Source of the DNA: an uncultured Verrucomicrobiae bacterium
Lineage (GTDB): Bacteria > Verrucomicrobiota > Verrucomicrobiia > Limisphaerales > Palsa-1400
DNA: 64,000 bases
NCBI GenBank assembly: GCA_963707025.1
Contig: CAVPOM010000012.1
Span: 416,001 to 480,000 of the forward strand
Direction: 5' to 3'
The position numbers and the translations under genes are program-made. Below are positions 1 through 18,600 of the stretch, in pieces. How positions within the stretch are numbered: the first letter of the stretch is position 1; each line of letters begins with the position of its first letter. Under the pieces are notes generated by a model, which saw nothing but the letters and a program-made list of their open reading frames with translations, was not told where the DNA came from and made no database searches.

Positions 1-1
1 G

Positions 2-579
2 GCCTCCAAGCAAACGCTGACCAGGCTTGCGCAAGGCGGCCCGTTTACCGACCACAATTGGCGGCGTCAGGAACTGCTCGTGCGTGCGCTCGTCAGCGTC
101 CGCCCGGCCACCCCGCCATCTGTCAAGTATTGGGACGAGCAGAGCACACCCGCCGCGGTCAACCGCCATGTCACGATTGAAATGCTGTGTGACAACGGCA
201 CCGGCCCGGCGTTGAGCTTGCTGGAAAGGAAACTTCTCGATCCCAAGCAGGAAAACATCTACAAGGTTTCATGGATCCATGCCTTCATGCTGCCACATCG
301 CCACGACTTGCCATTGCTACAGGCGTCGGCGCGCATGTTGACCGGAAGTTTGCCTCCCGATCTCCGCTGCATATTACTGGAAACGTTGTGCGATTACGAC
401 GAGCGTTGGTATCCTTGTTGTTACCACCCCCAACCCCCGTCGCGCCTGTTGATCAAGGAAGAGGCAAAGCAGGTGCTGCGCGGGATTTGCCGGGCATGCC
501 CGTGGAAAACATGGAACTGACGCCAGCCTTGAAGCTGGCGGTGGAGAAAACGTTGTTGGAAATTGGCGATCCGAAATAG
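2..579 (+). CDS. 5'-truncated alpha-helical hypothetical protein, paralogue of 641..1591; apparent frameshift at about 493-501
   Basis: Frame is open from nt 2 (ASKQTLTRLAQGGPFTDHNWRRQELLVRALVSVRP...) and aligns by eye with the downstream ORF (RALVSVRP/RALGTQRP, LLERKLLD/LLGRKLED, KVSWI/KISWI, LCDYDERW/LFDYRPREW). The C-terminus continues in another frame (VENMELTPALKLAVEKTLLEIGDPK*, stop 579). Confidence 0.7.
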
Positions 580-1755: not shown

Positions 1756-2160
1756 ATGCCCTCACCAAAAAGTGGAAATGCCGGTTCGACGGTTTCGCCC
1801 GCCGCTCCCGACACGGCTGCGGAGGCCGACGACGCCGTCGCCGGCGACGTTGACCAGGCCCAGGGCGGCTCGGCCACCAAGGCGGCGAGCAGCCAGGACT
1901 CCGCCCAGGTCAAGCCCTACAAACCCCCGCAAACGCAGGAGGAAAAAAAGAAAAAAACAAGCTGGATCGAGATCGAACTGGTGGATGCCCAAAACAACCC
2001 CGTGCCCGGCGAAGCCTACAGCATCACCCTGCCCGACGGCGAAACCGTCGCGGAGGGGACCCTGGACGAGAAAGGCTTCGCCCGCGTGGACGGCATCGAA
2101 CCGGGAACGTGCAAAGTCACTTTCCCGGAAATGGATGGGAGGTCTTGGACCAAGACGTGA
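1756..2160 (+). CDS. Stand-alone VgrG-C-terminal-like protein with transthyretin-like domain (copy 1)
   Basis: 134 aa: low-complexity N-terminus (SPAAPDTAAEADDA) plus WIEIELVDAQNNPVPGEAYSITLPDG..EGTLDEKGFARVDGIEPGTCKVTFP, the prealbumin/TTR-like pattern seen in VgrG/PAAR extensions. Near-identical copy at 6083. Confidence 0.75.
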   Translation: MPSPKSGNAGSTVSPAAPDTAAEADDAVAGDVDQAQGGSATKAASSQDSAQVKPYKPPQTQEEKKKKTSWIEIELVDAQNNPVPGEAYSITLPDGETVAEGTLDEKGFARVDGIEPGTCKVTFPEMDGRSWTKT

Positions 2161-2170
2161 ATTCCTTTCT

Positions 2171-2908
2171 ATGAGCAGAAGCAAACCGCCCGAAGACGGC
2201 AAACATCAAGTGGAGGACGGGGAGTGGGCCGGGAGCATTGCCGCCGCCTACGGTTATTTGGATTGGGAGCACGATGTCTGGAAACGGGGCGAAAATGCCG
2301 CCTTGCGTGAACGCCGCCCAAATCCGCGTGTTCTGGGCGAAGGGGATGTTCTGTTTATTCCACCATGGGAAGAGAAGAAAGAATCCTGCGCGACGGAGTT
2401 GAAGCACCGATTCAAGCTCAAGGCGCCCACCGAACTCCTGCGCATCCGGCTGCTGGACCTGGAGGGCAAACCGCTGAAGAACGAAGACTATGCGCTGCAG
2501 ATTGATTACGCTCCAGGCGGAGGCAAATACGAACAAAAAAACAAGCAAACCGATGGCGATGGCTTTCTGCAAGAGTGCATTCCTTCGACCGCGATGAAAG
2601 GCCTGCTCAGCTTTGCCAAAGCGCCGCAAAAGATCCTGCTGCGCCTGGGTTATCTCACTCCGATGGATCTGAATGACAACCCCAAATTGATCCGCGGAGC
2701 ACAGCAGCGCTTGCTGGCCATTGGCTTCGATCCCGGTTCCATTGATGGCTTGGATGGGCCCAGAACCCAAAGCGCCGTCACGGCCTTCCAGCAGTTCTGC
2801 GCCGACAACAAGAACCAGGGCAATGCCCGGATCATTGATGCCGGCCCCGTCAACGGAACCATCGGCAAGATGACCCGGGATGCCTTGTTAAAGTACTACG
2901 GCTGTTGA
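2171..2908 (+). CDS. LysM-like / TTR-like / PG_binding_1 domain protein (copy 1)
   Basis: ATG 2171. HQVEDGEWAGSIAAAYG...NPRVLGEGDVLFIP (LysM-like); LRIRLLDLEGKPL...TDGDG (TTR-like); QQRLLAIGFDPGSIDGLDGPRTQSAVTAFQ (PG_binding_1). Confidence 0.8.
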   Translation: MSRSKPPEDGKHQVEDGEWAGSIAAAYGYLDWEHDVWKRGENAALRERRPNPRVLGEGDVLFIPPWEEKKESCATELKHRFKLKAPTELLRIRLLDLEGKPLKNEDYALQIDYAPGGGKYEQKNKQTDGDGFLQECIPSTAMKGLLSFAKAPQKILLRLGYLTPMDLNDNPKLIRGAQQRLLAIGFDPGSIDGLDGPRTQSAVTAFQQFCADNKNQGNARIIDAGPVNGTIGKMTRDALLKYYGC

Positions 2909-2919
2909 ACAGGCTCGCC

Positions 2920-5157
2920 ATGCCCGACAATAACAAACTCCTTCAGGTCAAGATCACCATTGACGACCAGGGCAAAATCGGCAAGGTGGTGCATCCGGAC
3001 TGCAAACTAAACAGGGATGCCGATCTGCCATTTTCCGGAAGACAGTACGGATGGCGCCTGGCCGGTTATAATGACACGGGCCTGGATCTGAAAGCGTTCT
3101 TCGCCCAAGCAGTGGACGTGGCCACCAATTCGCCGGATAAGAAAGAAGATTTTAATACGATCCAATTCCGGGGTCCTGAATTGCTTAAGTTGGATGTTGG
3201 CCACTGGGGGGCCTACCACCGCTGGCGCGAGTACCCCGGCGGCCCGGATGCGGATGACGCTTCCAAGGAGAAAGGCATCCAGCGGGAGTTCGGCCTGATT
3301 GAAAACCATCATGTTTGGCTTTGCCGCTTCAACGGCCAGCAGGCCGTTCCTGCCACGCTCTCCAATTTTCAGTCCGCCAAGGCCACCTTGGCCGCTCAAA
3401 TCCTCAACAACCTGGCTCCGGGCTTTGGCATTGATATCGTCGCAGATGCTCCGGTCACCGATCCGCGCTCGGCCGAGTTGGACAACCAGACCCTTTACGT
3501 CATCTTTCCTGACTTGCACCTGCCCGAAACCCTGCCGGACTTTCCCCTCCCGGCGCAACGTCATCCGGTCGTCGCGGCGCGCCCGACTCCGCAACGCAAT
3601 CCGAACGCCGATGCGCGCAAGGCGTTGCGCAAGTTCCTGGTCAATGCGCAACACCAGCCGGGCTGGCTGGGCGCCAACCCGCTGGGCGAGAGCGACCAGC
3701 AAAAGGTGCAGGCTTATCTGGAAGCCATTCACGTTGAACCCGGGGCACCGCTGCCCGAACAGCCCCTTTGGCCGGTGAAACCAGGCCTGCTTGATTTTTG
3801 GAAGCCGGCGGATTTCTCCCCGGAGCAGTTTCTGGCGGAGAAAGCCATTGTGGACCGGGAAATCATGCTGACCGGCACCTGGTTTTACGCCCGGGGGCCG
3901 GGTTGGAAGAAGGAGGCCCAGACCGATCGCGATACTTGGGCCGCAGCCGACGATGACGGGGACCCTACGCCGGCGATTGAACTCGCCCACTTGCTTTGCG
4001 CCATCAAGAAGGCGCGCCAGGACTCCGCTGCCAACATCCAGGTCATTCAAGTCGGGGACCTTTACGAACTCTGGTTGAACCATGAGTTTCTTTATCGCGA
4101 CTTTCTCGTGGATACCTCCTTCAATGTGAGCGGGGCGGAGAAGCGCGCCTACTTCGGCATCTGGCAACAGGGCAGCAAATCGGATGACTATCAATACCGG
4201 TTGGATGCGGGCTTGCAGAATTCCGCCGGGGGCGGCTCCGCCAAAGAAAAGAGGTATGTTTATAATTATTGGCCCAAGGCGGACATGCTGTTGCGCTACA
4301 GGATCGGCGAACCAATGTATGCAGGACTCGACGACGATGATCTCCTGGAGGAGTTGTCCCTTCGGCCGCCGCAATTGCAGCGGGTGCAGGGCCTCTTGAA
4401 AGACCGGGTGGATCGGGTCCGCGCCTATTCGCTCCACCAACCCAACACGCCGGCTTGCGCGAGTCTTCTCGCCATGGATCCTGCCGTGCTCGATTTCAAG
4501 TATTTCTACCGCAGACAAAGGGACCTGAGGAAAGGCGGGACTGAATACGGCCCGGGCCAGGAGACGGAAAGGGAATATTTTATAGATCCGAATGGCCGCA
4601 AGGAGGTTTTTTGGAATGAAATGATCCTCAAACTTTTGGGTGACCTTGATTTCCGGAATATCGGCGGCAACCATGATGGTTATCGTTCGGATCCGTTGGT
4701 GAACGTGCTGCTGGATGACGTCGATCAGGCGGAGACGGTCATTAGCGAGCCGGGTTTGTGGATCGAACACAGCCATCGTTGGGACGAGTTCAACCGCGAT
4801 GGCATGGCCTTTGGCGCGGGCGCGGCCAACTACGTGTATTATTACTTCACCAGCCTCTGCTCCAAGAGCGCCGGCTGGTGGGAGGATATGCTCGGGCAGC
4901 AGGAGCAGAAATGCTTTGTTCCAGGCGCGGCCTTTTGGTTTGGGGTTGCCAATTTTGGGGACGACCTGAAATGGGCCGCCGACCAGGGCATTCCCGGCAG
5001 CGTCCAGCCTTTCGGCGTTTACGTTTCCGGCCACACCCACAGCGCCAGCCTGGCCCGCATCACCTTCGATTTGCCCCCCAAGTTAAAACAACCCAAACCC
5101 GCCGTGCCTGCTGCCCAGACCGCTGATCCCAACCAAACAGGTCCAACAGGGTGGTGA
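2920..5157 (+). CDS. Large calcineurin-like metallophosphoesterase, candidate T6SS effector
   Basis: All five metallophosphoesterase motifs occur in order: PDLH (3511), GDLYE (4054), GNHD (4666), EHSH (about 4765), GHTH (5029). No signal peptide; starts 11 nt after the LysM gene. Confidence 0.75.
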   Translation: MPDNNKLLQVKITIDDQGKIGKVVHPDCKLNRDADLPFSGRQYGWRLAGYNDTGLDLKAFFAQAVDVATNSPDKKEDFNTIQFRGPELLKLDVGHWGAYHRWREYPGGPDADDASKEKGIQREFGLIENHHVWLCRFNGQQAVPATLSNFQSAKATLAAQILNNLAPGFGIDIVADAPVTDPRSAELDNQTLYVIFPDLHLPETLPDFPLPAQRHPVVAARPTPQRNPNADARKALRKFLVNAQHQPGWLGANPLGESDQQKVQAYLEAIHVEPGAPLPEQPLWPVKPGLLDFWKPADFSPEQFLAEKAIVDREIMLTGTWFYARGPGWKKEAQTDRDTWAAADDDGDPTPAIELAHLLCAIKKARQDSAANIQVIQVGDLYELWLNHEFLYRDFLVDTSFNVSGAEKRAYFGIWQQGSKSDDYQYRLDAGLQNSAGGGSAKEKRYVYNYWPKADMLLRYRIGEPMYAGLDDDDLLEELSLRPPQLQRVQGLLKDRVDRVRAYSLHQPNTPACASLLAMDPAVLDFKYFYRRQRDLRKGGTEYGPGQETEREYFIDPNGRKEVFWNEMILKLLGDLDFRNIGGNHDGYRSDPLVNVLLDDVDQAETVISEPGLWIEHSHRWDEFNRDGMAFGAGAANYVYYYFTSLCSKSAGWWEDMLGQQEQKCFVPGAAFWFGVANFGDDLKWAADQGIPGSVQPFGVYVSGHTHSASLARITFDLPPKLKQPKPAVPAAQTADPNQTGPTGW

Positions 5158-5205
5158 CATGCTTTAATCTCGACAAAACCGCTCTTTCATCTCCACATAT
5201 CAGCC

Positions 5206-6036
5206 ATGGATATTCCACACACCAACATAGTTTACCACTTCGAACAGCGCGTCGAAATCATGTATCGCGAATCCGAAAAGACCAGCCCGACCAACGAGGC
5301 CTATCAACGTCAAGGCCTGATCCTCCTCTCCACCGGAGTCGAAGACTCTCGTTGGAAACGGGAGATAGCAGAATACGAAGTCGCGCCGGCTGAACTCGAC
5401 AAAATCCGCCAGCGGGACAAGGTGGATCGTGCTGAACTCCAGAAGGCGCAGCTCAAGGCCCTGGGCGCCCGGCGCACCCCCTTTGGCCTGGACTTCTCCG
5501 TCGAGGTGGACTCTGACATGCACAATAAGGAGGTCGTTATGACGGGCACCCAGGGCGCGCCTCTCCGGCAAGACCTGCTCTACCTTCCCACACTCCTGCC
5601 GGCCGTCCCGGATAAGCGCCCGGAACCCGGGGATGAATGGAACGGCGCCATTGAGATTGCCGGCGGCCCCGCCAGATTCCGCGTTTCCTATACCGCAAAA
5701 ATGCTGGAACGAATAGGTGACGACCCCAAAATCAACGTGACGCTTCAGCCCCAAAGCGCCACCCAGACCGTCAAGGATTTCACTTTCACCCTTTCCCCGC
5801 AAGGCCACTTGGTAACCCTCATTGCCAAAGCCGGCGGTTCGCCGCTATCTTCCGAAGGAGACTTCCGCATCAGCATCCGGGCCAAATTCGACCGCGACGG
5901 CACCCCCGTTGACGTTGAGGTCTTGAACTGCCACCAAACATTCACTCTGACGCGCGTCCCCGCCTCTTTTAATGACGACACTTTCCTGCCGGCAGGATGG
6001 AAATTGCCCCCAGAAAAGAAGCCAAATCCGCCTTGA
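5206..6036 (+). CDS. Hypothetical beta-rich protein, candidate cognate immunity/partner of the phosphoesterase
   Basis: 276-aa ORF directly after the cargo gene. Contains LPAVPDKRPEPGDEW; no recognisable catalytic motif. Confidence 0.6.
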   Translation: MDIPHTNIVYHFEQRVEIMYRESEKTSPTNEAYQRQGLILLSTGVEDSRWKREIAEYEVAPAELDKIRQRDKVDRAELQKAQLKALGARRTPFGLDFSVEVDSDMHNKEVVMTGTQGAPLRQDLLYLPTLLPAVPDKRPEPGDEWNGAIEIAGGPARFRVSYTAKMLERIGDDPKINVTLQPQSATQTVKDFTFTLSPQGHLVTLIAKAGGSPLSSEGDFRISIRAKFDRDGTPVDVEVLNCHQTFTLTRVPASFNDDTFLPAGWKLPPEKKPNPP

Positions 6037-6082
6037 AAAATCTGTTCATTCCCCGTGGAATACTGACCATTAGATCAAACCT

Positions 6083-6487
6083 ATGCCCAGTCCAAAAAGT
6101 GGAAATGCCGGCACGGCGGTTTCGCCCGCCGCTCCCGACACGGCCGCGGAGGCCGACGACGCCGTCGCCGGCGACGTTGACCAGGCCCAGGGCGGCTCGG
6201 CCACCAGGGCGGCGAGCAGCCAGGACTCCGTCCTGGTCAAACCCTGCAAACGCCCGCAAACCCAGGAGGAAAAAGAGAAAAAACCAAGCTGGATTGAGAT
6301 CAAACCCGTGCATGAGCAGAACAACCCAGTGGCAGGCGAACCCTACAGCATCACCCTTCCCGACGGCGAAACCGTCGCCGAAGGCACGCTCTACGAGAAG
6401 GGTCTCGCCCGCGTGGACGGCATCGAACCGGGAACGTGCCGAATCACCTTTCCGCAACGGGATAAAGAAGCCTGGAAGAAGGCCTGA
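6083..6487 (+). CDS. Stand-alone VgrG-C-terminal-like TTR-domain protein (copy 2)
   Basis: 134 aa, same length as 1756..2160 and nearly identical to it at the DNA level over the 5' half. Confidence 0.75.
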   Translation: MPSPKSGNAGTAVSPAAPDTAAEADDAVAGDVDQAQGGSATRAASSQDSVLVKPCKRPQTQEEKEKKPSWIEIKPVHEQNNPVAGEPYSITLPDGETVAEGTLYEKGLARVDGIEPGTCRITFPQRDKEAWKKA

Positions 6488-6508
6488 GCGCGCAGCATTT
6501 TGCCTTTT

Positions 6509-7180
6509 ATGGCTGAAGACTACACCGTGGAACCAGGCGACTGCATGAGCAGCATCGCCTATGAGCGCGGCTTCTTTTGGAAAACGCTGTGGAACGATTC
6601 CTCCAACGCCGAGCTCAAAGCCAGGCGCAAAAACCCAAATGTGCTGATGACCGGCGACGTCGTCCACATTCCCGACTTGACCGTCAAGAAGGAACCGGGC
6701 GCGACGGAAACCACCCACAAGTTCATGCTCAAGGGCGTGCCGGAGATATTGCGCATGAAACTGCTGGACGCCAACCATCAGCCGCGCGCCAACCTCGACT
6801 ACCTCATTGTCATCGAGGGCAACTCCCGGAAAGGCAAGACCGACGGCAACGGCGAGCTAAAAGAAAGCATCCCGCCCAACGCCAAGGCCGGCAAGCTCAC
6901 GTTCGCGACCTGTCCGGACAAGACCGGCAAGCCGATTCCGGGAAAGCCAAAAAACCAGGTCATGAACTTGCAGTTGGGCAACCTCAATCCCGTTTCCGAG
7001 GTGAGCGGCCTCAAGTCCAGATTGGCCAACCTGGGATTTTACAAAGGCCCGATTGACGATAATCTCGATAAGGCCGCCAAACAGGCCATTCGCGCTTTTC
7101 AGCGCCGGAAGGGCCTGCCGGTGACCGGCGTGGCCGATGAGGCCACCAAGGGCCAGTTACTAAAAATTCATGGCCACTGA
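6509..7180 (+). CDS. LysM / TTR-like / PG_binding_1 domain protein (copy 2)
   Basis: YTVEPGDCMSSIAYERG...NPNVLMTGDVVHIP (LysM); LRMKLLDANHQPRAN...KTDGNG; LKSRLANLGFYKGPIDD...AIRAFQRRKGLPVTGVAD (PG_binding_1). Confidence 0.85.
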   Translation: MAEDYTVEPGDCMSSIAYERGFFWKTLWNDSSNAELKARRKNPNVLMTGDVVHIPDLTVKKEPGATETTHKFMLKGVPEILRMKLLDANHQPRANLDYLIVIEGNSRKGKTDGNGELKESIPPNAKAGKLTFATCPDKTGKPIPGKPKNQVMNLQLGNLNPVSEVSGLKSRLANLGFYKGPIDDNLDKAAKQAIRAFQRRKGLPVTGVADEATKGQLLKIHGH

Positions 7181-7263
7181 ACCGGCTTGGCCAGGTGCCC
7201 GGTATGAAAGCGGGCAAATCGCCAAACGACAACAGATTTTGAGAAAATCACAAAAGTAAAAGT

Positions 7264-8661
7264 ATGCCTGATGACCCCGATGCCGGCGCACCGCAGGATG
7301 GTGGCGCACCGCAAGATGGTGGAGCGCCGCAGGATGCCGGAGCGCCGCAGGATGCAGGCGCGCCTGCCGGAGCGCCGCAGGATGGTGGCGCACCGCAAGA
7401 TGGTGGCGCACCGCAGGATGCCGCTGCGCCGCAGGATGCCGCCGCGCCACAGGATGTTGATGCGGCTCGGGGCGATGACACCAATACGACGGCAGATCCT
7501 GTCAATATCAGTCTGACCGTGCAATGCGGTCACACCACCAGCGGCCTCCGTCAGGTAGTCGGCAACCCGGGAGCGGACGGCAGGCTTCAGATTGTGCCGT
7601 CCGACGGGCAGAATAGCAATGCGGTGAGTCTAAAAATCGCGGCGCTCGTCCAAATACAAGGTCAAGAAAACACCGATGGAACCGATACCATTCAAGCCTC
7701 GATTACGGATAACTCCGGCAACGGAGTGCCCAACCCACAAATCGCGATTACCCAGGCCGATGCGCCCTCCGATGGCGACTGGCAGAGCGGCATGAGCGCG
7801 ACGTTGCCGCCCATTCCAAGCCCTGGGGACAACAGCACCGTTTGGCTGGCGGACGCCCAAGCCACCGTGTGGAACGTCTTCGCGGCGGGCAATCCGGATG
7901 ACACTCCCGTAAAAGTGCAAGTGGAGGCATTTCCCGCCTATGCCGTGCAGGGAGCGGTTAATCTGGATTTTTTAGGCGACGTCACCAAGAAGATCAACGA
8001 CGCTTGCAAGAATGTCATCAACCCACTGACCGGCGGGACCGTTACCATAGAACCGCAGTTTCAGTTGCCGCAAGGAACGCTGCAGGTCTCGTGCGGCTGG
8101 AAGGAAAACAGCGACTGGCAGGCCTATTACGGTTGGAGCGTCGCTGCCGGACTCAACCCATTTTTTGGCATGGGAGTGAAGTTTGGGGTGGACTTTGTGG
8201 CGATAATCGGACTCTGCGCGGACATCCCTCCCATGATAACCAAGTATGCAGCCTCCCTTGTCCTCAGTGTGAAGGTGAGCGGCCAGGTGGGCATCAGCGG
8301 CACGGTCAGTTGTAATGGACCGCTTAGTTTTACGGGAACATTAAATCCCAATGGACAGATTTCCGTGGAGTTGGCCCTGACCGCGAAGGTCGGAAATGAA
8401 AATGTGTTGAGCGCCTCCATCTCGGGGGGCTGCACGGCGGGGATCAAGTGGGCCGGGCAAATTCCCCAGCCGGCCTCGCCCGGCGGAAGCGTGGTCTTGA
8501 AGCACACCCTCAATTTCACCGGCATCGTCCTGACCGTGACGATTGTCACCACCGCCTTTTCATGTGAGATGACCAACACCCAAAACTCGGTGAGTTTAAT
8601 GTCCGCCGGTGATCCGGTGGCCTTGGATGACATCACCTTGATCGGCGCTGACAACAGTTAA
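7264..8661 (+). CDS. Hypothetical protein with N-terminal PQDGGA repeats and beta-strand-rich C-terminal half; candidate secreted cargo
   Basis: 465-aa ORF in the same cassette position as the phosphoesterase. Alternating Gly/Val/Ser beta pattern in the C-terminal half. Confidence 0.7.
   Translation: MPDDPDAGAPQDGGAPQDGGAPQDAGAPQDAGAPAGAPQDGGAPQDGGAPQDAAAPQDAAAPQDVDAARGDDTNTTADPVNISLTVQCGHTTSGLRQVVGNPGADGRLQIVPSDGQNSNAVSLKIAALVQIQGQENTDGTDTIQASITDNSGNGVPNPQIAITQADAPSDGDWQSGMSATLPPIPSPGDNSTVWLADAQATVWNVFAAGNPDDTPVKVQVEAFPAYAVQGAVNLDFLGDVTKKINDACKNVINPLTGGTVTIEPQFQLPQGTLQVSCGWKENSDWQAYYGWSVAAGLNPFFGMGVKFGVDFVAIIGLCADIPPMITKYAASLVLSVKVSGQVGISGTVSCNGPLSFTGTLNPNGQISVELALTAKVGNENVLSASISGGCTAGIKWAGQIPQPASPGGSVVLKHTLNFTGIVLTVTIVTTAFSCEMTNTQNSVSLMSAGDPVALDDITLIGADNS
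7279..7462 (+). repeat. Coding 18-bp tandem repeat (PQDxxA x9)
   Basis: Units like ccgcaggatggtggcgca / ccgcaagatggtggagcg / ccgcaggatgccggagcg; nine PQD units and one short PAGA unit. Confidence 0.95.
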
Positions 8662-8667
8662 AATTCC

Positions 8668-9438
8668 ATGATACATCATTTGCTTAAACTTGTCACCGGC
8701 GGGCTGACCGCCAGCGCCGGCATTAATGGCGCTCCCCTTTTGATTGATTCGACCGGCATCGGGCTGAATGGGACCATGCCGGCCAACCCCTGGCTCAAAC
8801 CCACGGGAAACACCCTCAGTATTTCTCTGGCCAGGCCGCCGGCCACGCCCAACGTCAACCTTGCCGAAGTCCAGGTTCGCGCCGAGGTTTACACCGTCCA
8901 GTCCGGTTCCCGCACCATGGAGCCGGAAACATGGCTGGCCAGATTCGCGTGGCATGCGGGCGATCCGGCCCCCTTGCCGGTGACTCGCGAGATTGCCTTT
9001 GAAATTGCGGCCCCGCCGCCGACCAGCCTGTGGGCCGAAGCGGCGCGGGTCAATGACCTTTCCGCGACGGACCAGCAACAGTTGAGGACGCTGATGCAAA
9101 AGCTGGCCGGGGCCATTCTAAGCCGCGACCTGGATGGCATCTCCGTTTTGCTGGATTACAAAACAATGGACTGCGCTTTGGCCAACGGCCAGGACCCGGA
9201 TCGCATGCGCCAGGTCATTCGCGAGCTGTACACAACCGACATGTTCTCCGAACCATCACTCCGGGTGGAAGGGGCTGGAGCAAACGAGTTGGAATTTAAG
9301 CTGGTCGCCGGAGGCCAGGCCGTCTGGGTATTCCAAGGTCCGGGCAAACCCGCCTTGGTGGTGGTGTCGCCCAACAAGCGGTTCGGCCTGACGGTCTTTG
9401 CCGCCAAAACCGCAGGCGCCTGGAGGATTGTCAGATGA
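8668..9438 (+). CDS. Hypothetical protein, candidate immunity/partner of 7264..8661
   Basis: 256-aa ORF starting 6 nt after the cargo stop. N-terminal beta region (GINGAPL...PANPWLKPTGNTLSI) and C-terminal region ending GAWRIVR. Confidence 0.65.
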   Translation: MIHHLLKLVTGGLTASAGINGAPLLIDSTGIGLNGTMPANPWLKPTGNTLSISLARPPATPNVNLAEVQVRAEVYTVQSGSRTMEPETWLARFAWHAGDPAPLPVTREIAFEIAAPPPTSLWAEAARVNDLSATDQQQLRTLMQKLAGAILSRDLDGISVLLDYKTMDCALANGQDPDRMRQVIRELYTTDMFSEPSLRVEGAGANELEFKLVAGGQAVWVFQGPGKPALVVVSPNKRFGLTVFAAKTAGAWRIVR

Positions 9439-9504
9439 ACCGGGGAAAACAGCCTCGTGCCTGGACAACACCGAGTTGATAGTTCCCCAAAGAGCACCTC
9501 ATAT

Positions 9505-10239
9505 ATGATTCAAGCGCCACTCGTTAAAATCACCCAGCCTCCCAGCGAGGTTGCGGCCAAATACCAGCCGCATCCGGAAGCCAAGGCCTTGCTGCAGCCG
9601 GCGCAGACGCCGACGCAATACGCGGAGGCGTTGCAAAAGGGAAGCTTTTCGCACGACCAAATTCATTTCCTGGCGCACGGGATGCCGGAAAGGGAATCGG
9701 TCGGCTGGGCATGCAAAAGTTCCGCCAAAGTGTCCGATAAACTGGAACCGGCGGACAAGTCTGCCTTGGGCGCGGCCCAGGCATGGGTGAAAAATCCAAC
9801 GCCCGCCAACCAAGCGGCGGCGGCGGCGGCAGCCGCCAAAACAAATTATCAGGGGCCGGGCGCCTGGGCGGCGCAAGGCGCGGCTTGGGCCAAGGCTCCA
9901 GGCGCGCCGGCCGCGCCCGCGGCGCCGAATCTCACCGGCCACGCTGTGGCGGGTTCGGTCATGCTGGCGGCCGCCAAGTCCGCCGGCAAAATGCCGGCAA
10001 TCCAGCCTCCCGCGCTCGCGGCGCCAGCCATGCCGAAAGTTCCCACCCTCCAAGCGCCCCAGGTGGCCGCGCCGAAAGTTCCCGCGCTCCAACCGCCCCA
10101 GATGGCCCTGCCAAAGCCGCCGGCCCTCTCGCCCCCAAAGCCGCCCGCGCTGCCCGAACGGGTTGAAACTGCCAAAATCCACCAGCCCTTCATTGATCTG
10201 GGCCACGGCATCGCCAGCGGCCAGCACCCGTTTATTTGA
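9505..10239 (+). CDS. DUF6931-like (Imm5-related) T6SS-associated protein with Pro/Ala-rich tail
   Basis: FLAHGMPERESVGWAC...ALGAAQAWVKNPT...GPGAWAAQGAAWA...LTGHAVAGSVMLAAA pattern of the family commonly found next to PAAR genes. Confidence 0.7.
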   Translation: MIQAPLVKITQPPSEVAAKYQPHPEAKALLQPAQTPTQYAEALQKGSFSHDQIHFLAHGMPERESVGWACKSSAKVSDKLEPADKSALGAAQAWVKNPTPANQAAAAAAAAKTNYQGPGAWAAQGAAWAKAPGAPAAPAAPNLTGHAVAGSVMLAAAKSAGKMPAIQPPALAAPAMPKVPTLQAPQVAAPKVPALQPPQMALPKPPALSPPKPPALPERVETAKIHQPFIDLGHGIASGQHPFI

Positions 10240-10338
10240 TTTCGCCCGTCCAGCTCAGAACAACATTTTTGCCGCGACCATTTGCAGCTTTTGGGTAGTG
10301 TCCCGATTTGTTGCAGCGTCGAGCCTGTGGCTCGAAAT

Positions 10339-10383
10339 CGGCGCACATCCCCCTGCGCCAAGGCTACGGCGGACAGGGCGCCG
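10339..10383. repeat. REP-like palindromic intergenic element
   Basis: atccccctgcgccaaggctacggcggacagg flanked by the inverted cggcgc/gcgccg. Reverse strand reads PVRRSLGAGG, matching a short interspersed repeat I recognise from other genomes. Confidence 0.5.
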
Positions 10384-10428
10384 ACACTGCAACAATCAAA
10401 TCAGCCCACTCCCAGCTTTTGGGAGCGC

Positions 10429-10457
10429 TTGACAGTCAGGCACAAATCCTCCATATT
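10429..10457 (+). promoter_or_regulatory. Sigma70-type promoter of the PAAR gene, probably leaderless
   Basis: TTGACA (10429-34), 17 nt, CATATT (10452-57), 6 nt, ATG (10464). No Shine-Dalgarno. Confidence 0.55.
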
Positions 10458-10463
10458 CCAACC

Positions 10464-10763
10464 ATGCCGATGGCCGCTCGTTTAACCGACATGCATGTCT
10501 GCCCGATGGTGACGCCGGCTGTGCCGCCTGTTCCCCATGTCGGCGGCCCCATTACCGGCCCGGGCGCTCCCACCGTGTTGATCGGCGGCATGCCTGCGGC
10601 AGTGGTGGGTGACATGGTTGTTTGTGTCGGTCCGCCCGATACGATTGCCATGGGTTCAACCACGGTGTTGATTGGCGGCAAACCGGCCGCCCGCATGGGT
10701 GACCCCACTGCGCATGGCGGTTCGATTGTTCTTGGCTGTCCGACAGTGATGATTGGCGGATGA
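10464..10763 (+). CDS. PAAR domain spike-tip protein
   Basis: 99 aa: MAARLTDMHVCP...PHVGGPI...GGMPAAVVGD...C...GGKPAARMGDPTAHGG, with Zn-binding Cys/His residues. Confidence 0.95.
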   Translation: MPMAARLTDMHVCPMVTPAVPPVPHVGGPITGPGAPTVLIGGMPAAVVGDMVVCVGPPDTIAMGSTTVLIGGKPAARMGDPTAHGGSIVLGCPTVMIGG

Positions 10764-10819: not shown

Positions 10820-11504
10820 TAGAGCATTTTCTATTTAGATAGACGCATTCGGGGTTTGCTGCTATTTTCTGGTTATGAAAAGAGAATTATGCGTCCTTTG
10901 AGTCAGGATTTGCGTCAGCGGATCATTGCCGCGCGGGAGCGCGGGGAGGGCACTGGGGCAGTGTGCCAACGTTTTGGTGTCAGTCGTAAGAGCGTGGAGC
11001 GGTTTTGGAAACAGCACTGCCGGACGGGCGCGTGCGAGCCCAAACAGATTGGAGGTTACCGGCGCTCGCGCTTGGAAAAGCATGACCGAACCCTGTGCGG
11101 TTGGATTGCCGCTCAGTCGGACCTGACGTTGAGGGAGCTGCAAAAGCGGTGCCGGGAGCAACTGCATGTAGCCATCGGCATCACCGCGTTGTGGCACCGT
11201 TTGGAACGGCTCGGTCTGAGCTATAAAAAAAACGACGCGCGCCGCCGAGCAAGATCGGCCTGATGTCAAAGCCGCCCGGAGGCTTTGGCGCAGGCAACAG
11301 CCTGGCTGGGATGTCCGCCAGTTGGTATTTCTCGATGAAACCGGCTTGAACACCAAGATGGCCCGTCACTACGGGCACTGCCCGATGGGGCAGCGTTGCG
11401 CCAGCGCGGTCCCGCACGGTCACTGGCAAAGCTCCACCTTCCTGGCGGCCTTGCGCCACGAAAGCATCGAAGCGCCCTTCTTGGTCGAAGGGCCTGTCGA
11501 TGCC
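10820..11504 (+). mobile_element. Truncated IS630-family element (left end and split transposase, 3' part deleted)
   Basis: Left end TA|GAGCATTTTC at 10820. HTH orfA 10889..11263 (MRPLSQDLRQRII...LGLSYKK); A8 run at 11225-32 joins to the +1 frame KTTRAAEQDRPDV...LVFLDETG. Similarity stops at EGPVDA, before the second Asp and the Glu of the DDE triad; no right end seen. Confidence 0.85.
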
Positions 11505-11560
11505 GATACCCTCGCCCTCACGCCGCACATGGGCTGGAACAGTTGGTATGTATGGGAGAG
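11505..11560 (+). pseudogene. Short GH27 alpha-galactosidase remnant fused to the IS630 fragment
   Basis: DTLALTPHMGWNSWYVWE matches the GH27 N-terminal signature L(A)xTPxMGWNSW. Confidence 0.6.
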
Positions 11561-11792
11561 CTGCTCATTGAGCCCGACGCAGTGAGTCAGCCGGCTTCGA
11601 TCCTTGTTCCGAGGATCAGCCAACCACTTGGGAGCGGATGGTGAAGGTGCGGCACCGGTTTGCGGCGCCAAAGGTAGAGAGCGTTTACTTTGCCGTTGAT
11701 ACGGACGATGAATGAGGTGGGCCGCGCATTTAGCCTTTGCCGCGCGCCATTGGAAATCCCACTTTCGAACGTTTCATCCTCCCGCCGGCCCC

Positions 11793-12551
11793 TTAAGCCG
11801 CCGCACGCGGAGCAGGCACGCACGTATGGAGTCCTTGTTGTCCCGGCCATTTCCAACAACAGAGGCGCGCGTAGCGGCATGTTGCAGCCAAAGCAGCCGT
11901 ATAGTGCAAAGCGGGCCTGAATGATTGCACCGACTATGGTGCGCCGCCGGATATATCGTGAGTAGATAAAAGATCTGTCTGGTCCATTCCTTCGCCGATG
12001 CCGTTGCCTTGTGCCTTCAACAAGGCTTCCTTCCGTGTCCAAGATCTGAAAAACGCATCGGTCTTTCTGTCGCTTGGAAGTGAATGCCATGGCGCACGTT
12101 CGCGTTCGTGGAAAAAATGCGCCACATTTTCCCCCGCCTCACAAACCGAATGGATGCGCTCGAGATCAACACCGACTTCGTGCGCGCTCGACACCGCATA
12201 AACAGCCAGGGCATCAGAATGCGCGAGCTTGAAATACAATCGATTCCGAGCGCCTGGCAGAGCAAGGCGGGGTTTGCCGTGGGTGCCATAGGAAAAAATC
12301 AATTGACCTGGGTTGGCGCGGAGCAACCAGGCAAGAATCTCCCGCAAAATTCCGCGGCCAGCCAGAAATCGTGTTTTGTGCCTTTCAAGATAAAACCGCG
12401 CAGCCTTCTCGCATTCATCGATTGATAATGTTTCTGCCAGGCGTTCAATTCGTGGGAGAGGCAAATCGAGGAGGGCGCAAAAGACATGGATCTCGTCCTT
12501 GATGAATTCCAAGTCTTCTGGCGGCGGGCCAAATAAAATGACCGGTATCAT
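11793..12551 (-). pseudogene. Sfp-type 4'-phosphopantetheinyl transferase with premature TAG at 11934-36
   Basis: YGTHGKPRL, LAHS, VGVDLE and WTRKEALLKAQG motifs. After the TAG the frame continues SVQSFRPALHYTAALAA...RLCCWKW, a typical Sfp C-terminus, to TAA at 11793, so the TAG is probably a TGG (Trp) mutation. Confidence 0.8.
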
Positions 12552-12600
12552 GCGTATTGGGTTAACTGGCTTTCTGCTTCCACCATGATATTTGTGGGGG

Positions 12601-15600
12601 TCAATGCGTGTTATACACCGGAGGCCGAGTCTCTTCCTCGCTCAATTGGCTGATTTCCTTGGCCAGCAATTCTTCGATCACTCTGGCCAACTTGGCGATG
12701 GTGGGCGAGGCGAAGAAGCGGCGGATCGGCAACTCGATCTGAAAGGCCTCACGCAAGCGCGAGATAATTTGCGTCATCAAGAGCGAATGGCCGCCCAGTT
12801 CAAAAAAGCTCTCGTGAAGGCCGACCCGTTCCAGATGCAGGACCTCGCGCCAAATCTCGGCCACCGCGATTTCGGTGGGTGTCTGTGGGGCGGCAAACGA
12901 TTCGTCCAATTCCGGCCGGGCTTGCTCCGGCACAGGCAGAGCCGTGCGGTCCAGCTTGCTGTTCGGCGTCAAAGGAAGCGCTTCGAGGAAAACGAACGCG
13001 GCCGGAATCATGTAGTCGGGCAGTTTTGTGTTCAGAAAGCGGCGCAGTTCGCTCAGCGCAGGGCTGGCCTGGTCAGGCTCGGCCACGACATAACCGACCA
13101 GCCGCCTGTCACCGGGGGAATCTTCGCGCAGCACCACGACGCACTCGCTCACCGCCGGATGTTCCCTGAGGGCCGATTCCACCTCGCCCAGTTCGATGCG
13201 GTGCCCGCGAAGCTTCACCTGCCCGTCAGCCCGCCCCAAATATTCGATGTCGCCATCCGTCAGGCAGCGGGCGAGGTCGCCGGTTTTGTAGAGGCGCGCG
13301 CCTGGCTTATTGCGAAACGGATTGGGAATGAATCTTTCCGTTGTGAGTTCGGGACGATTCAGATAGCCGCGCGCCACACCGGAGCCGCCCACATACATTT
13401 CGCCCGGCAGGCCGATGGGGACAGGTTGCATCCTGGCGTCTAAAATATAAATTCGCAAATCGGGAATTGGTTGGCCAATGACGCTGCCGGATGCAAGGTC
13501 TTTGGCAAAGATGGGCCGATAGGTCACATGCACCGTGGTCTCGGTGATGCCATACATGTTGACCAGGCGCGGCTTCTGGTCACCGTGCTTGTCGAACCAC
13601 GGTTGCAGGCTTCTCATCTCGAGCGTCTCACCGCCAAAAATGACGTAGCGCAACGCAAGTTGGTGCGGACGCCCGCTGCGTTGATCGGCTTGGACCAGTT
13701 GCCGGAAAGCGGAAGGCGTCTGGTTCAACACCGTCACGCCTTCGCGCGCGAGCAGCTCGAGAAAATCTTCGGGCGAACGGCTTACCGGATGCGGCACAAT
13801 GACCAGCCGTCCGCCGTAGAGCAAGGCGCCCCAGATTTCCCAGACCGAGAAATCGAAGGCATAAGAATGAAAGAGAGTCCAAACGTCGCTCTCGTTGAAT
13901 TGATACCACGGCTGCGTCGCGTGAAGCAGGCGTGTGATGTTTTGGTGTGTGACCATAACCCCCTTCGGCTTGCCGGTCGAGCCGGAAGTGTAAATCACGT
14001 AAGCCAGATTCTCCAGGCTCACTTCGGTGCCGGGGTTGTTGTCCTGAGACGGGTCTTGAGAATCGAAAACATCCTCCACGCAGACGACTTGATTTTGAAA
14101 GGCAGGGAACTTGGCCACAAAGGCCCGCTCGGTCACCAGCACTCGTGCGTTGGCATCCTGCAACACGAATTCCAGCCGTTCAGCCGGATAAGCTGGATCC
14201 ATCGGCACATAAGCCGCACCGGCCTTCAAAACACCGAGGATGCCGACGACCATCTCGACCGAGCGTTCCTGGCAAAGTCCGACCATGTCCTCTGGACCGA
14301 CCCCGAGCGAGCGCAAGCGATGCGCCAGGCGGTTGGCGCGACGATTCAATTCGCCATAACTTAACCGCTGTTCTTCCAAGCTCACTGCCACCGCTTCTGG
14401 CGTCCGCGCCACCTGCTCTTCAAAAAGTTGATGAACACACTTGGGGCATGGAAAATCAGCCTGTCCACCGCTCCAGTCATGCAGAATTCTGCGTCTATCT
14501 TCCGAGGACAGCAGTGAAAGATTGGATACTTCTTGCTGCGGATCGGCGGCGATATTTTCGAGCAAGGCGCGGAAATGTCCAAGCCAGCACCGCATGGTCG
14601 GGGCTGAAAACAGCCTGGTGTTGTAACGGCAATCGAGTTGTAAGGCGCCGTCGATTTCGGTCAGGTTTAGGCCAAGATCAAAATGGGTGTGGGCATGGGG
14701 ATTGGGCTGGAGACTCGGTTTCCAGGCCAAGGAATTTCAATGGTTCGCCAAGCCGCTGCACGTTGAGGGTCACCGAGACCAGCGGCATTCGGCCGGCATC
14801 GCGCGGAAGGTTCAACTTCTGCACCAGGCGCCCGAACGGACAGTGCTGGTGGTCATAAGCATCGAGAAATTCTCTTTGCATCCCGGCCAGAAAATCGGCG
14901 AAGGTTCCGCCGTTGACCCTGGCCCGCAGCGGAAGAAAGTTGACACAATGGCCGACGAGCGTGTCGCCGCCTTCCATGGCCCGGTCGGCCAACGGAATGC
15001 CGATCACCATTTCGTTTTGACCGCTCAACTTGTTGAGCCACACCGCGCAGCCAGCCAGCAAGGTGGTGAACAACGTGCCGCCGTGCCGTCCACTGAGGCG
15101 CTTCAAGGCGAGCCCGAGGCTTTCCGGCAGCAATAGACTTTCCATGGCTCCGTCGAAGGTCCATGCGGCAGGGCGCGGACCGTCGGTGGGCAATTCCAAA
15201 ACGGGCGCGCCCTGGCCGAATTGCTTCAGCCAAAAGGCCTCGTCCGCCAGTTGCCTGTCAAAATGTGGCGATTGCCGGCAGACGTATTCCCTCAATTGCA
15301 ATGGCGCGACCAATTCGACGCGTCCGCCCCGGCATTCGCCAGAATAAATTTCCGCCAACTCGCGCAGAACAATTCCAAGCGAATGGCCGTCACAAATGAT
15401 GTGGTGAACGGTAACCAGGAGAACGTGATGATCTTCGCCCAGGCTGATCAGGCGCGCGCGGAGCAGCGGGCCGTGGACTAAATCGAACGGTCGCGCGGAT
15501 TCTTCAGCTTGAATCGCGTCCAGGCGCGTCGCGCGCTCCTCTGGGCTAAGCTTCAACCAGTCCAGCATTGGAACTTCCATGTTCAAAGTGGGATGGACTT

Positions 15601-18600
15601 GCTGAGTGTTGCCATCGGGCGCCAAAGTGGTTCGCAGGGCCTGGTGTCGGTCCACCAATTTCCGCACAGCCCCGAGCAGCGCGTCCCGGTTCAAGGCTCC
15701 GCGCAAATGCAGCAGCCGGGATTCGTTGTAAGCGCAGGAAGCGGCGTCGCTCATTTGCGAGGCAAACCACAATTCCCGTTGCGCCTCCGTCAACGGAATG
15801 GTGACCATGTGTTTTGGCTCATTTTGGGCGGCCGCCGCCGTTTCCTTTGCGATGACGGCGGAATTTTTGTCCGTCGCGCTTGGCGGGGCTTTCGCCAGGC
15901 GGGCCGCCAGCGCGTTCAGGGTGGAAAATTCCTCGAGCAATTGCCGGAACGCGACGCGCACGCCGAACTTCTTTTCCATCATCACGGTGGCTTGGGTAAG
16001 GAACAGGGAATCGAAACCCATTTCGATGAACGTCGTCGTGCCGTTCATGGTCGCGAGGTTCAGCCCTGACAACTCGCCGAAAAGTTGGAGCAAGGTTGCC
16101 GCAATTTGATCTTCCCGCGTCGCCGGGCCAGTTGCGGTCGAATGATGAATAGGGATGACCACCGCTTCTTCCACCTCGCGATCCCGTGCCTGGGCCAGGG
16201 GTGCGATCGTTTGTTCCTGGATGGACTTCGCCGGCTCGACCCAAAAGCGCTTGCGCTCGAACGGATAGGCCGGCAAAGGCACACGGCGGCGCTTCTCGCT
16301 CGTGTAGAAAGATCTCCAATCTATTCTGACCCCAGAGAGCCACAGTTGGCCGAGCGCGCTCAACAGAATGTCCCAACCCGAAGCAGATTCTGTCGCGTGC
16401 CGCAGAGAAGGAATGCTGACGCCGCCGGCGTTCCATGCTGGATGCCGCCTCGCCAAATTACTCAAGGTCCGTCCCGGACCGACTTCCAAAAGAATTCGTC
16501 GCTCGTCTTTGCAGAGTTCGGCGACACCGTTGGCAAAGCGCACGGTCTGGCGCAGATGTGTCGCCCAATAATGGGGATCGGTGGCCTGCAAGGCTGAGAT
16601 CCAGGCGCCAGTGACATTTGAAATGTAAGGAATTTGCGGGGCGTGCAATTCCACTTTGCCAACGAGTTGGGCGAACGGTTCCAAAATCGCATCCATCATG
16701 GCCGAGTGAAACGCGTGCGAGGTTTGAAGGGGCGTCGAGGCGACGTTGCGCTGGGTCAACTCGCGCCGCATCCTTTCGACGGCCTCGGCCGGGCCGGAGA
16801 CGACGCAGAGAGAGGGCAAATTGATGGCGGCCAGGGAAATTCTATCGTTGAGAAATGGCACCACTTCGTTTTCAGGGAGACGCACCGCGAGCATCGTGCC
16901 GCCGGGCAACTGTTGCATCATGCGCCCGCGCGCGGCGATGAGCAAAAGCGCGTCCTGAAGTGAGAACACGCCGGCCAGACACGCCGCCACATATTCGCCG
17001 ACGCTGTGGCCGATCATCGCTTCCGGCCGCACTCCCCAACTGATCCACAGTTTCGCCAACGTGTACTCGATGACGAACAGCGCGGGTTGTGTGACCGCGG
17101 TTTGCGTGAGGCGGCTTTCAGCTTCCTCCATCTTATCCGCCGCTGGATAGAGCACAGCACGCAGATCCAATCCGAGGTGCGGATTTAGAATCGCGCCGCA
17201 GGCATCCACTTGCTCACGGAAGGTGGGTTCGTGTTCGTAGAGGTCCAAGCCCATGTTCACGTGCTGCGCGCCCTGGCCGGGAAACATGAACACGATGGGC
17301 GGATTGTCCTGCTTGGCGACACGTGTGAAAAGTCGTTTCGTGTCCGGGGCTTGCAATGCGTTCACAGCGTCGGTCGCGCCGCGGCAAACCAACATGCGGC
17401 GGTGCGCGAAATGATGACGGCCCACCTGCAAAGTGTAAGCCGCGTCGGCCAGGTTGACCGCGGGATTCTGTTGCAGATGCGCGGGCAGATTCGCCGTCGC
17501 CTTGGCCAGCGCCGTTTCCGTTTTGGCAGAGAGCAGAAGCAACTGCGCCTGGCCGTGTCCGGACAGGAGATGGCGGCGCCGGCGCTTCTTCCAGAACGAC
17601 ATGAGCGTTGGTGCCGCCGATGCCAAACGAACTGACGCCAGCGCGGCGCGGGGCCGCCCCGGCTTTCCATTCGGCCAGCTCTCCATTGACGTAAAAGGGA
17701 CTGTTGGCGAAATCAATTTTTGGATTGGGCGACTCGAAATGCAAGCTGGGCGGCAGCTTCTTGTGATGCAGCGCCAGCGCGGTTTTGATCAAGCCAGCGA
17801 CGCCGGCGGCCGTGTCAAGATGACCGATGTTGGATTTAAGCGAACCGACCGCACAGTAATTTTTGGCAGGCGAACGGGCGCGAAAGGCCCTGGTCAGCGC
17901 TTCGATTTCAATGGGATCTCCCAGCGGCGTGCCCGTGCCGTGGGCTTCGATGTAACTGATGGTCTCGGGCGCGAAGCCAGCCATGGCCTGCGCGGTGGCG
18001 ATGACCTCGGCCTGGCCTTCAACGCCCGGCGCAGTGTAGCCAATTTTATTGGAACCGTCGTTGTTGATGGCGAAACCCTTGATGACGGCGTAGATCGTGT
18101 CCCCATCCGTCAGCGCGTCTTCGAGCCGCTTCAAGAGGACGATGCCGACGCCATCGCCTGGCACCGTACCCGCAGCCTGCGCGTCGAACGCGCGGCAGTG
18201 CCCATCCGGGGACCCAATTCCGCCTTCTTGGAAAAAATAACCGCGCTTTTGCGGAAAGGTGATGGAGACGGCGCCCGCCAGCGCCATGTCGCACTCGTAA
18301 TTGAGCAAATTTTGGCACGCCACACAGACCGCGACGAGCGAAGTGGAGCAGGCGGTCTGGATGGTCAGGCTGGGTCCGCGCAGGTTCAGCTTGTAGGAAA
18401 CGCGCGTGGGCAAAAAGTCCTTGTCGTTGCCGAACATCACCTGATGTTCACTCAGTTGCGCCATTAGTTCCGGGCGGGTGAGCAGGTTTTGCGCAAGGTA
18501 AGTGTTCATGCTCATGCCGGCGAAGACGCCGATGGCGCCGTTGAACCTGGCGGGATCGTAGCCGGCGCTTTCCAACGTCTCCCAGGCGCATTCGAGGAAG

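Follow-up and report, generated by a model that had tools for sequence, protein, structure and literature searches.

How a single type VI secretion system (T6SS) spike takes on many unrelated effectors is an open question. In a locus of an uncultured Verrucomicrobiae bacterium (assembly GCA_963707025.1), one vgrG gene is followed by three repeats of a two-gene head, here termed H and L, each leading its own payload gene. The stretch analyzed, the window, comprises 64,000 nucleotides (positions 416,001–480,000 of contig CAVPOM010000012.1, hereafter C12); plain coordinates are those of the window, and C12: and L001: coordinates refer to the contig and to the fetched upstream locus, respectively. 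On C12, the T6SS cluster runs tssK, tssL, tssM, two uncalled genes, tssA, tssB, tssC, hcp, tagJ, tssF, tssG, clpV, a lysozyme-like gene, and vgrG, and is followed by H0-L0-C0-I0a-I0b, H1-L1-C1-I1, H2-L2-C2-I2, a DUF6931 gene, and PAAR, making up a three-unit payload array. The 13 genes of the array are all intact open reading frames (ORFs) on one strand, and a promoter and terminator scan gave signals no better than chance. An earlier note on the window had reported the head twice, and both occurrences stand (1756–2908 and 6083–7180, + strand), but the array has three heads, as a genome search placed H0/L0 at C12:412561–413867, upstream of the window. Likewise upheld is that each head leads an unrelated large gene and an unrelated small one, since C1, I1, C2, and I2 gave no BLAST match to each other at E<0.01 (the payloads of the array likewise share none), and that the block ends in DUF6931-like (9457–10239, +; ATG start probably at 9505; Pfam E 8e-28) and PAAR (10308–10763, +; ATG start probably at ~10464; Pfam E 4e-26) genes. 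The latter encodes the spike tip, and one vgrG and one PAAR were detected in the genome, which is 88% complete.

By sequence, H is the C-terminal tail of VgrG turned into a gene of its own, comprising an N-terminal motif and a truncated TTR-like domain. H1 (1756–2160, +) and the third copy of the array, H2 (6083–6487, +), each encode a free tail of 134 aa; in H1, the conserved motif SPKSGxAGSxVxPxxPxxAxxADxAxxG (motif residues ~1–35) is followed by a linker and the truncated TTR-like domain (residues ~68–134). H1 was matched by 1092 proteins of 73–235 aa, most of the best 120 listed being 127–134 aa long. Of 8000 longer candidates that were scored, 627 matched H, and most of the 120 listed were VgrGs of 760–810 aa, in which the last ~135 aa of a ~780-aa VgrG aligned with nearly all of H at ~45–60% identity, bearing out the suggestion that the TTR tail had been detached from VgrG; no natural H-L fusion was present among these 120 longer matches. 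Moreover, 43 of 46 VgrGs immediately ahead of an H-motif gene terminate in ...IN*, and fused forms continue into the tail at the same point. The C12 vgrG itself ends in ...GGAVMIN*, and H0 begins 19 nucleotides past its stop in a different frame, so that the TTR tail is not covalently attached to this VgrG. The TTR-like domain of H gave weak Pfam prealbumin-like matches below the cut-off and a profile match to the TTR-like domain of L (probability 92%) that stops short of the last strand of the latter, and the H profile had no significant match among solved-structure sequences. H0–H2 are mutually 80–81% identical (H1/H2, 81%), and L0–L2 are 29–41% identical (L1/L2, 35% by BLAST). H genes carry their own ATG at a conserved position (a strict pattern found it in 77 of 88, and inspection by eye in most of the remainder), and the whole-gene ratio of nonsynonymous to synonymous substitution rates (dN/dS) among the H paralogs is 0.30–0.35, indicating purifying selection on H.

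The N-terminal motif of H also occurs as an independent unit, as a profile of H residues 1–45 found it without TTR in four distinct proteins. Motif-only peptides of 67 and 54 aa lie directly behind vgrG (L008:10001–10204 and L056:651–815, respectively), and in L009 the motif is fused to a payload. In another genome, G013, it forms the N terminus of a C2 homolog (E 2e-6) that stands immediately behind vgrG and is followed by an I2 homolog and then by DUF6931; the C2/I2 payload pair is thus found once with its own motif and once behind H and L. Such a fused/free pattern is what defined MIX, FIX, and RIX as loading domains (available text of PMC10435454 and PMC10673891). Further, the spike segment of VgrG measures 167–223 aa, often in steps of ~8, in VgrGs that end in IN* and have a free tail (n = 36), versus 152–162 aa in fused VgrGs (n = 67), from which we infer that the longer spike receives H. 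Fused and split VgrGs are intermixed on a quick, unfinished tree, with 10 changes, at least 7 of them forced.

L1 (2171–2908, +), whose monomer model has a predicted local distance difference test score of 90, comprises a LysM domain (residues 1–65), an exposed segment (63–86), a TTR-like domain (87–160), and PG_binding_1 (165–245), and L2 (6509–7180, +) is also a LysM-TTR-PG_binding_1 protein; no signal peptide-like or membrane stretch was found in L0–L2. PG_binding_1 scores above the Pfam cut-off. Pfam LysM gave no match on L1 or L2 at E<0.1, and the LysM call comes from a profile search and from the model, in which this domain matches 9g8s_T, a phage tail tube initiator (the best match, Z 7.2), and 4uz2_A (Z 6.4). 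The middle domain, with six strands, aligns to the VgrG TTR domain of the Tle1 complex, 6sjl_A (Z 6.9, root-mean-square deviation [rmsd] 2.5, 57 aa); Foldseek returned no match for L1 at E≤0.001. The segment between LysM and TTR (residues 63–86) has no secondary structure in the monomer model and yet is conserved, with H or Y at position 79 and F or Y at position 81 in 79 of 79 rows. The N-terminal module of L is joined to HExxH domains in four aligned proteins (L004, L007, L032, and L101). C0, which lies upstream of the window, also contains a conserved HExxH, and an identity of its family with the L-fused HExxH family was considered and rejected, the alignment covering the HExxH motif alone (probability 12%). 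In a separate protein, P0124, an FHA domain is joined to the L N-terminal module and to three H-type domains. We also observed a short form, L′, comprising a TTR-like domain and PG_binding_1 without LysM, between L and the payload at L027:14494–15018 and L111:9102–9611 and in L029, L057, L078, and L081; four of these proteins begin with HNTL.

Two short motifs point to how H, L, and payload may be joined. The first, K.E..ATE..H.F..K (2375–2422 in L1, +), is the predicted source of donor strands for the H domain; it was found in 51 of 79 L rows versus 3 of 256 other ORFs, and all three of the latter are related payloads that lie behind H or VgrG-H without L (L049, L055, and L075) and start with ATELKHxF. 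In L067, an amidase behind H has a looser form of this motif. The second, [HFYWLKG]N[TL][LIV] within the first 100 aa, was found in 17 of 33 genes directly after L (9 of 20 sequence families), with controls at 1 of 22 second genes and 5 of 256 others. In C1 it reads FNTI (residues 78–81; 3151–3162, +), a predicted donor strand for the L domain; it lies in a loop without secondary structure in the model, and N79-T80 is kept in the C1 family. A complex prediction of H1 residues 55–134 with C1 residues 1–190 and L1 scored 0.87, versus 0.75 with C1 replaced and 0.00 with L1 replaced; no interface was given, and the scores count neither for nor against binding.

The arrangement recurs well beyond this genome. 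We tabulated 92 H copies in 86 loci; loci of our own genome, short fetches duplicated within larger ones, and four nearly identical loci were set aside. Free copies number 86; of the other six, two have an extension at the C terminus, two are fused to VgrG, and two are motifs without TTR. This free/fused ratio is not the natural one because the loci were chosen as best matches to free H; the "free" copy of L084 is probably a fusion cut at a contig end. vgrG directly precedes 42 of the 76 free H copies that have upstream room, and an L-family gene is next to 50 of the 66 that have downstream room (34 whole, 8 classed as fusions by length, and 8 cut). T6SS markers are present in 27 of 29 loci of at least 5 kb and in 55 of 86 overall, with variable gene pairs downstream, so that the neighborhood tabulation proposed by the earlier note came out in its favor. 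Multihead arrays also occur in L004, L007, L027, L057, and L100, and G025 and G331 have three H copies each. Its distribution is patchy: with our own genome counted, the module was found in 4 of 251 genomes of the order and 2 of 401 in the phylum, and in none of 5 other family members. Hosts of the H motif include Verrucomicrobiota, Planctomycetota, Nitrospirota, and some Proteobacteria and others. A plasmid of Eleftheria terrae carries an orphan unit (L110:8719–12741) in which an H-type domain on a different N terminus is followed by L and then by a 924-aa protein, with no vgrG annotated within 9 kb; the 924-aa protein presumably has nuclease/phosphatase-like motifs. Ca. Thiodictyon syntrophicum, a cultured species, carries VgrG-H, L, L′, and a payload. 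The array is thus a real, conserved, T6SS-linked modular array.

We lean slightly toward a relay from spike to H to L to payload by serial β-strand complementation. The H motif would be a spike-loading signal by which H docks on the VgrG spike; the H domain, one strand shorter than that of L, would be completed by the ATExxHxF segment of L; and the TTR-like domain of L would take the motif 2 strand ([HFY]NT[LIV]) of many payloads. The H-L-payload complex would then be secreted along with the spike, and LysM and PG_binding_1 would keep the payload at the cell wall of the target, the free tail letting a single vgrG carry several different payloads. A bolder version, which we regard as tentative and rather less than probable, has pilus-like chains on the spike (spike-H-L-[L′]-toxin), in which each link donates a β-strand to the preceding TTR domain, the H motif is a new signal of the MIX/FIX/RIX class, split off from VgrG on repeated occasions, the spike grows in length to accommodate it, and one VgrG trimer could bear as many as three different chains. 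L′ may be a third link in such a chain.

Several observations weigh against the relay. The Z score of 6.9 between L and the VgrG TTR domain is no better than those of matches to many unrelated immunoglobulin-like domains, and no payload matches a described toxin family in Pfam or NCBIfam. H and L, which the earlier note treated as a pair, do keep company in most loci but are separable, as 16 of 66 free H copies have no L behind them, and L has no H in front of it in L006, L030, L057, L061, L067, and L074. Motif 2 is absent from the first 100 aa of 16 of the 33 genes that follow L (11 of 20 families), C0 and C2 among them. Both motifs were defined post hoc on the same loci that were used for counting. 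In a published coimmunoprecipitation (PMC10673891), a LysM protein directly connects VgrG with the effector, and the available text describes no free tail. Finally, vgrG (L001:14465–16541 = C12:410465–412541, upstream of the window) is split into two frames near L001:15880. A depth-2 contig of soil run X1 has a one-base gap at this frameshift site and is otherwise identical over 268 nucleotides; that one-base difference makes an assembly error in vgrG possible, although a single low-depth contig is weak evidence.

The first rival is a parallel arrangement, in which L binds VgrG via LysM and bridges the payload and H is a separate adaptor or a spike-stabilizing subunit. We consider this unlikely, even though Kalk_10460, a stand-alone LysM protein, was required for VgrG-effector coimmunoprecipitation (available text of PMC10673891), L stands straight behind vgrG with no H between them in L067, several arrays contain extra L genes without an H of their own, and the motif-only peptides behind vgrG suggest a structural role of the H motif. 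What it leaves unaccommodated is that L-family genes follow most free H copies, that motif 1 is common to L and to the payloads that replace L behind H, and that the H-type domain of Eleftheria terrae, on its other N terminus and with no vgrG annotated nearby, still precedes L. It is improbable that L is instead a structural or envelope part of the T6SS, either a baseplate or tube-initiator protein of the LysM type or an anchor to peptidoglycan that compensates for a TssL lacking a wall-binding domain, duplicated together with H: the best LysM match is indeed a tube initiator, and TssL matches DotU only, but L0–L2 have no signal or membrane stretch, the three divergent copies each stand ahead of a payload, the L module is fused to HExxH domains, and the vgrG regions fetched for G013 and L008 yielded no L. 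We give little credence to a chaperone role in the cytoplasm, in which H and L would load the payload without leaving the cell, as DUF4123 or DUF2169 proteins do, although H and L share with known chaperones the slot between vgrG and payload (available text of PMC10673891). In many relatives, H is covalently joined to VgrG, and its motif also occurs fused to payloads; in those forms, it must exit the cell. The two wall-binding domains of L, for their part, would have no role in the cytoplasm. Least probable is that only the first unit is in use and that the heads behind it serve as spare cassettes that are silent, or as anchors for recombination, comparable to orphan toxin modules. Although the three H genes share 90–94% DNA identity over their 5′ thirds (enough for recombination) and the H1/H2 motif has a dN/dS of 0.77 on few changes, each H has its own ATG and is under purifying selection as a whole gene, the 13 ORFs are intact on one strand, and the H repeats have no sequence in common with vgrG itself.

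On the payload side of the relay, C1 (2920–5157, +), a predicted cargo effector, contains all five metallophosphoesterase motifs (DxH, GD, GNH, H, and HxH); across 26 rows, D198/H200, G379/D380, G583-N-H-D, and H617 are invariant and H705-T-H707 is kept in at least 90%. Aligning its model with VIA-align gave LpxH as the top match (Z 7.3, rmsd 3.7, 175 aa), and nearly all of the 50 listed rows belong to the same superfamily; Foldseek returned no match at E≤0.001, and the C1 profile found nothing significant among solved-structure sequences. On this model, C1 is a calcineurin-like metallophosphoesterase-fold protein with an LpxH-like core and large inserts, and a predicted enzyme, so that its earlier labeling as a phosphoesterase was apt. 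C2 (7264–8661, +), also a predicted cargo effector, begins with a low-complexity N terminus, in which an 18-nucleotide unit occurs 10 times (7279–7456), followed by a region of no known family; against the ESM Atlas, C2 gave a 0.75 lead only, and I2 lay close to unnamed clusters. Genes behind close L2 relatives (L021:7284, L027:11052, L044:5091, and L074:5749) open with long Gly/Ser/Asp/Pro low-complexity stretches, like the C2 repeat.

Each payload is followed by a partner that accompanies its own payload family elsewhere. The first partner of C0, I0a (250 aa), starts upstream of the window at C12:415768, with its 3′ part at 1–520 (+), and I0b (563–1591, +; start codon uncertain) is a paralog of it (35% identical) with an N-terminal hydrophobic stretch and a predicted second immunity copy; homologs of I0a lie behind C0 homologs in L007 and L030. 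I1 (5206–6036, +), which has no family match, has a 56% homolog behind a C1 homolog in L020, and I2 (8668–9438, +) has a 35% homolog behind the C2 homolog in G013. I0 is present in duplicate (I0a and I0b), which is common for immunity genes. We predict that I0a/I0b, I1, and I2 are immunity proteins and that C0–C2 are toxins. Payload slots in other loci hold amidase, deiminase, lipase-like, and OmpA-like proteins, and most of 107 scanned neighbor proteins have no Pfam family; the slot at L025:2964–5585 encodes a protein-arginine deiminase (PAD, E 1e-58).

Around the array, the 286-aa gene between clpV and vgrG (L001:13590–14450) has a weak phage-lysozyme match (E 0.01), and the same gap elsewhere holds varied genes, including GH19 and CHAP matches, with no obvious immunity gene. 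Directly past PAAR lie IS630-like transposase fragments (10889–11585), and a phosphopantetheinyl transferase and, as read from sequence, nonribosomal peptide synthetase/polyketide synthase-like ORFs, all unrelated to the array, occupy 11934–17716 on the minus strand. In L002:2623–11271, just ahead of the T6SS cluster, a 2287-aa protein and a ShlB/FhaC transporter form a probable two-partner secretion pair.

In summary, the overall reading of the earlier note is partly supported, with the toxin/immunity role and all binding steps inferred; the note overlooked the third head, as well as the motifs that speak for a relay in two tiers. If the relay is true, it would add a new motif for loading and an adaptor logic with two tiers, and would provide two short sequence tags with which to look for effectors in Verrucomicrobiota, Planctomycetota, Nitrospirota, and some Proteobacteria. 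Were the pilus-like chains real, many effectors as yet unknown, from phyla that have been little studied, would be recognizable by the two strand motifs. The same parts occur naturally in fused, split, and bypass forms, which makes each step of the relay directly testable.

Among known systems, the closest is the RIX-TTR adaptor, likewise a free protein of 134 aa, which has a loading motif at its N terminus and a TTR domain at its C terminus and is needed for secretion of its effector (Kanarek et al. 2023; available text of PMC10435454, as for the other statements on RIX). In both systems, the module is elsewhere fused to VgrG or PAAR and the loading motif also occurs directly on toxins. RIX, however, is arginine-rich, ~55 aa long, formed of two helices, limited to Vibrionaceae and Moritellaceae, and located outside T6SS clusters, whereas the H motif is rich in Ala, Pro, Gly, Ser, and Lys (Arg makes up 1.0% of H residues 1–60 in 109 rows) and homologous to the VgrG tail, and H lies inside T6SS clusters of other phyla, has a second TTR protein, L, behind it, and occurs repeatedly within arrays. 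The system thus works like RIX-TTR but falls outside RIX, from which composition, homology, and location, rather than a RIX profile run, set it apart. Completion of the TTR fold by an N-terminal strand of the cargo is established for VgrG1-Tle1 (available text of PMC10715212) and predicted for RIX-TTR. In VgrG1-Tle1 of enteroaggregative Escherichia coli (PDB 6SJL), the TTR-like domain also sits on a flexible linker past the VgrG β-helix and takes cargo by fold complementation, at three sites per spike; here, complementation is only predicted. There, TTR is covalent on VgrG and binds the toxin directly, whereas here it is a separate multicopy gene, with an extra protein before the payload gene.

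Wang et al. (2023; available text of PMC10673891) described LysM, PG_binding_1, and DUF2345 domains of vgrG loci, which are encoded by stand-alone genes between vgrG and toxin or are fused to VgrG or to the toxin, and a LysM protein that bridges VgrG and effector by coimmunoprecipitation. L resembles these proteins, since L0 is the second gene past vgrG (the published criterion being within three genes), LysM and PG_binding_1 are present, and stand-alone and payload-fused forms both exist (the HExxH fusions, toxicity assumed). That text describes no free TTR tail, LysM-TTR-PG three-domain protein, strand motifs, or repeated heads, and reports PG_binding_1 from Gammaproteobacteria only. The DUF4123 (Tap/Tec), DUF1795 (Eag), and DUF2169/Tvp adaptors are also encoded by accessory genes between vgrG and effector (available text of PMC11883445 and PMC13373197), and DUF4123, DUF1795, and DUF2169 adaptors are described as nonsecreted chaperones (available text of PMC10673891). 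H0–H2 and L0–L2 have no Pfam or NCBIfam match to these three families, nor does any protein of the window match them, in line with the earlier remark that no described adaptor class was known with this architecture; that remark was nonetheless overstated, as RIX-TTR and stand-alone LysM adaptors are published. A link to PIPY was rejected, PIPY being DUF4150, a PAAR-like tip (available text of PMC11883445). Literature searches, which left most subscription papers outside, found no description of this architecture; in their available text, a 2026 accessory-gene review (PMC13584744) and PMC11582642 do not mention TTR or LysM, PMC3482391 does not mention TTR, and PMC11148199 mentions TTR solely as a C-terminal domain of spike proteins. 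The parts have published cousins; what appears to be new is that the loading motif derives from VgrG, that there is a second TTR tier, that heads are repeated behind a single vgrG, and that the system is linked to spike length.

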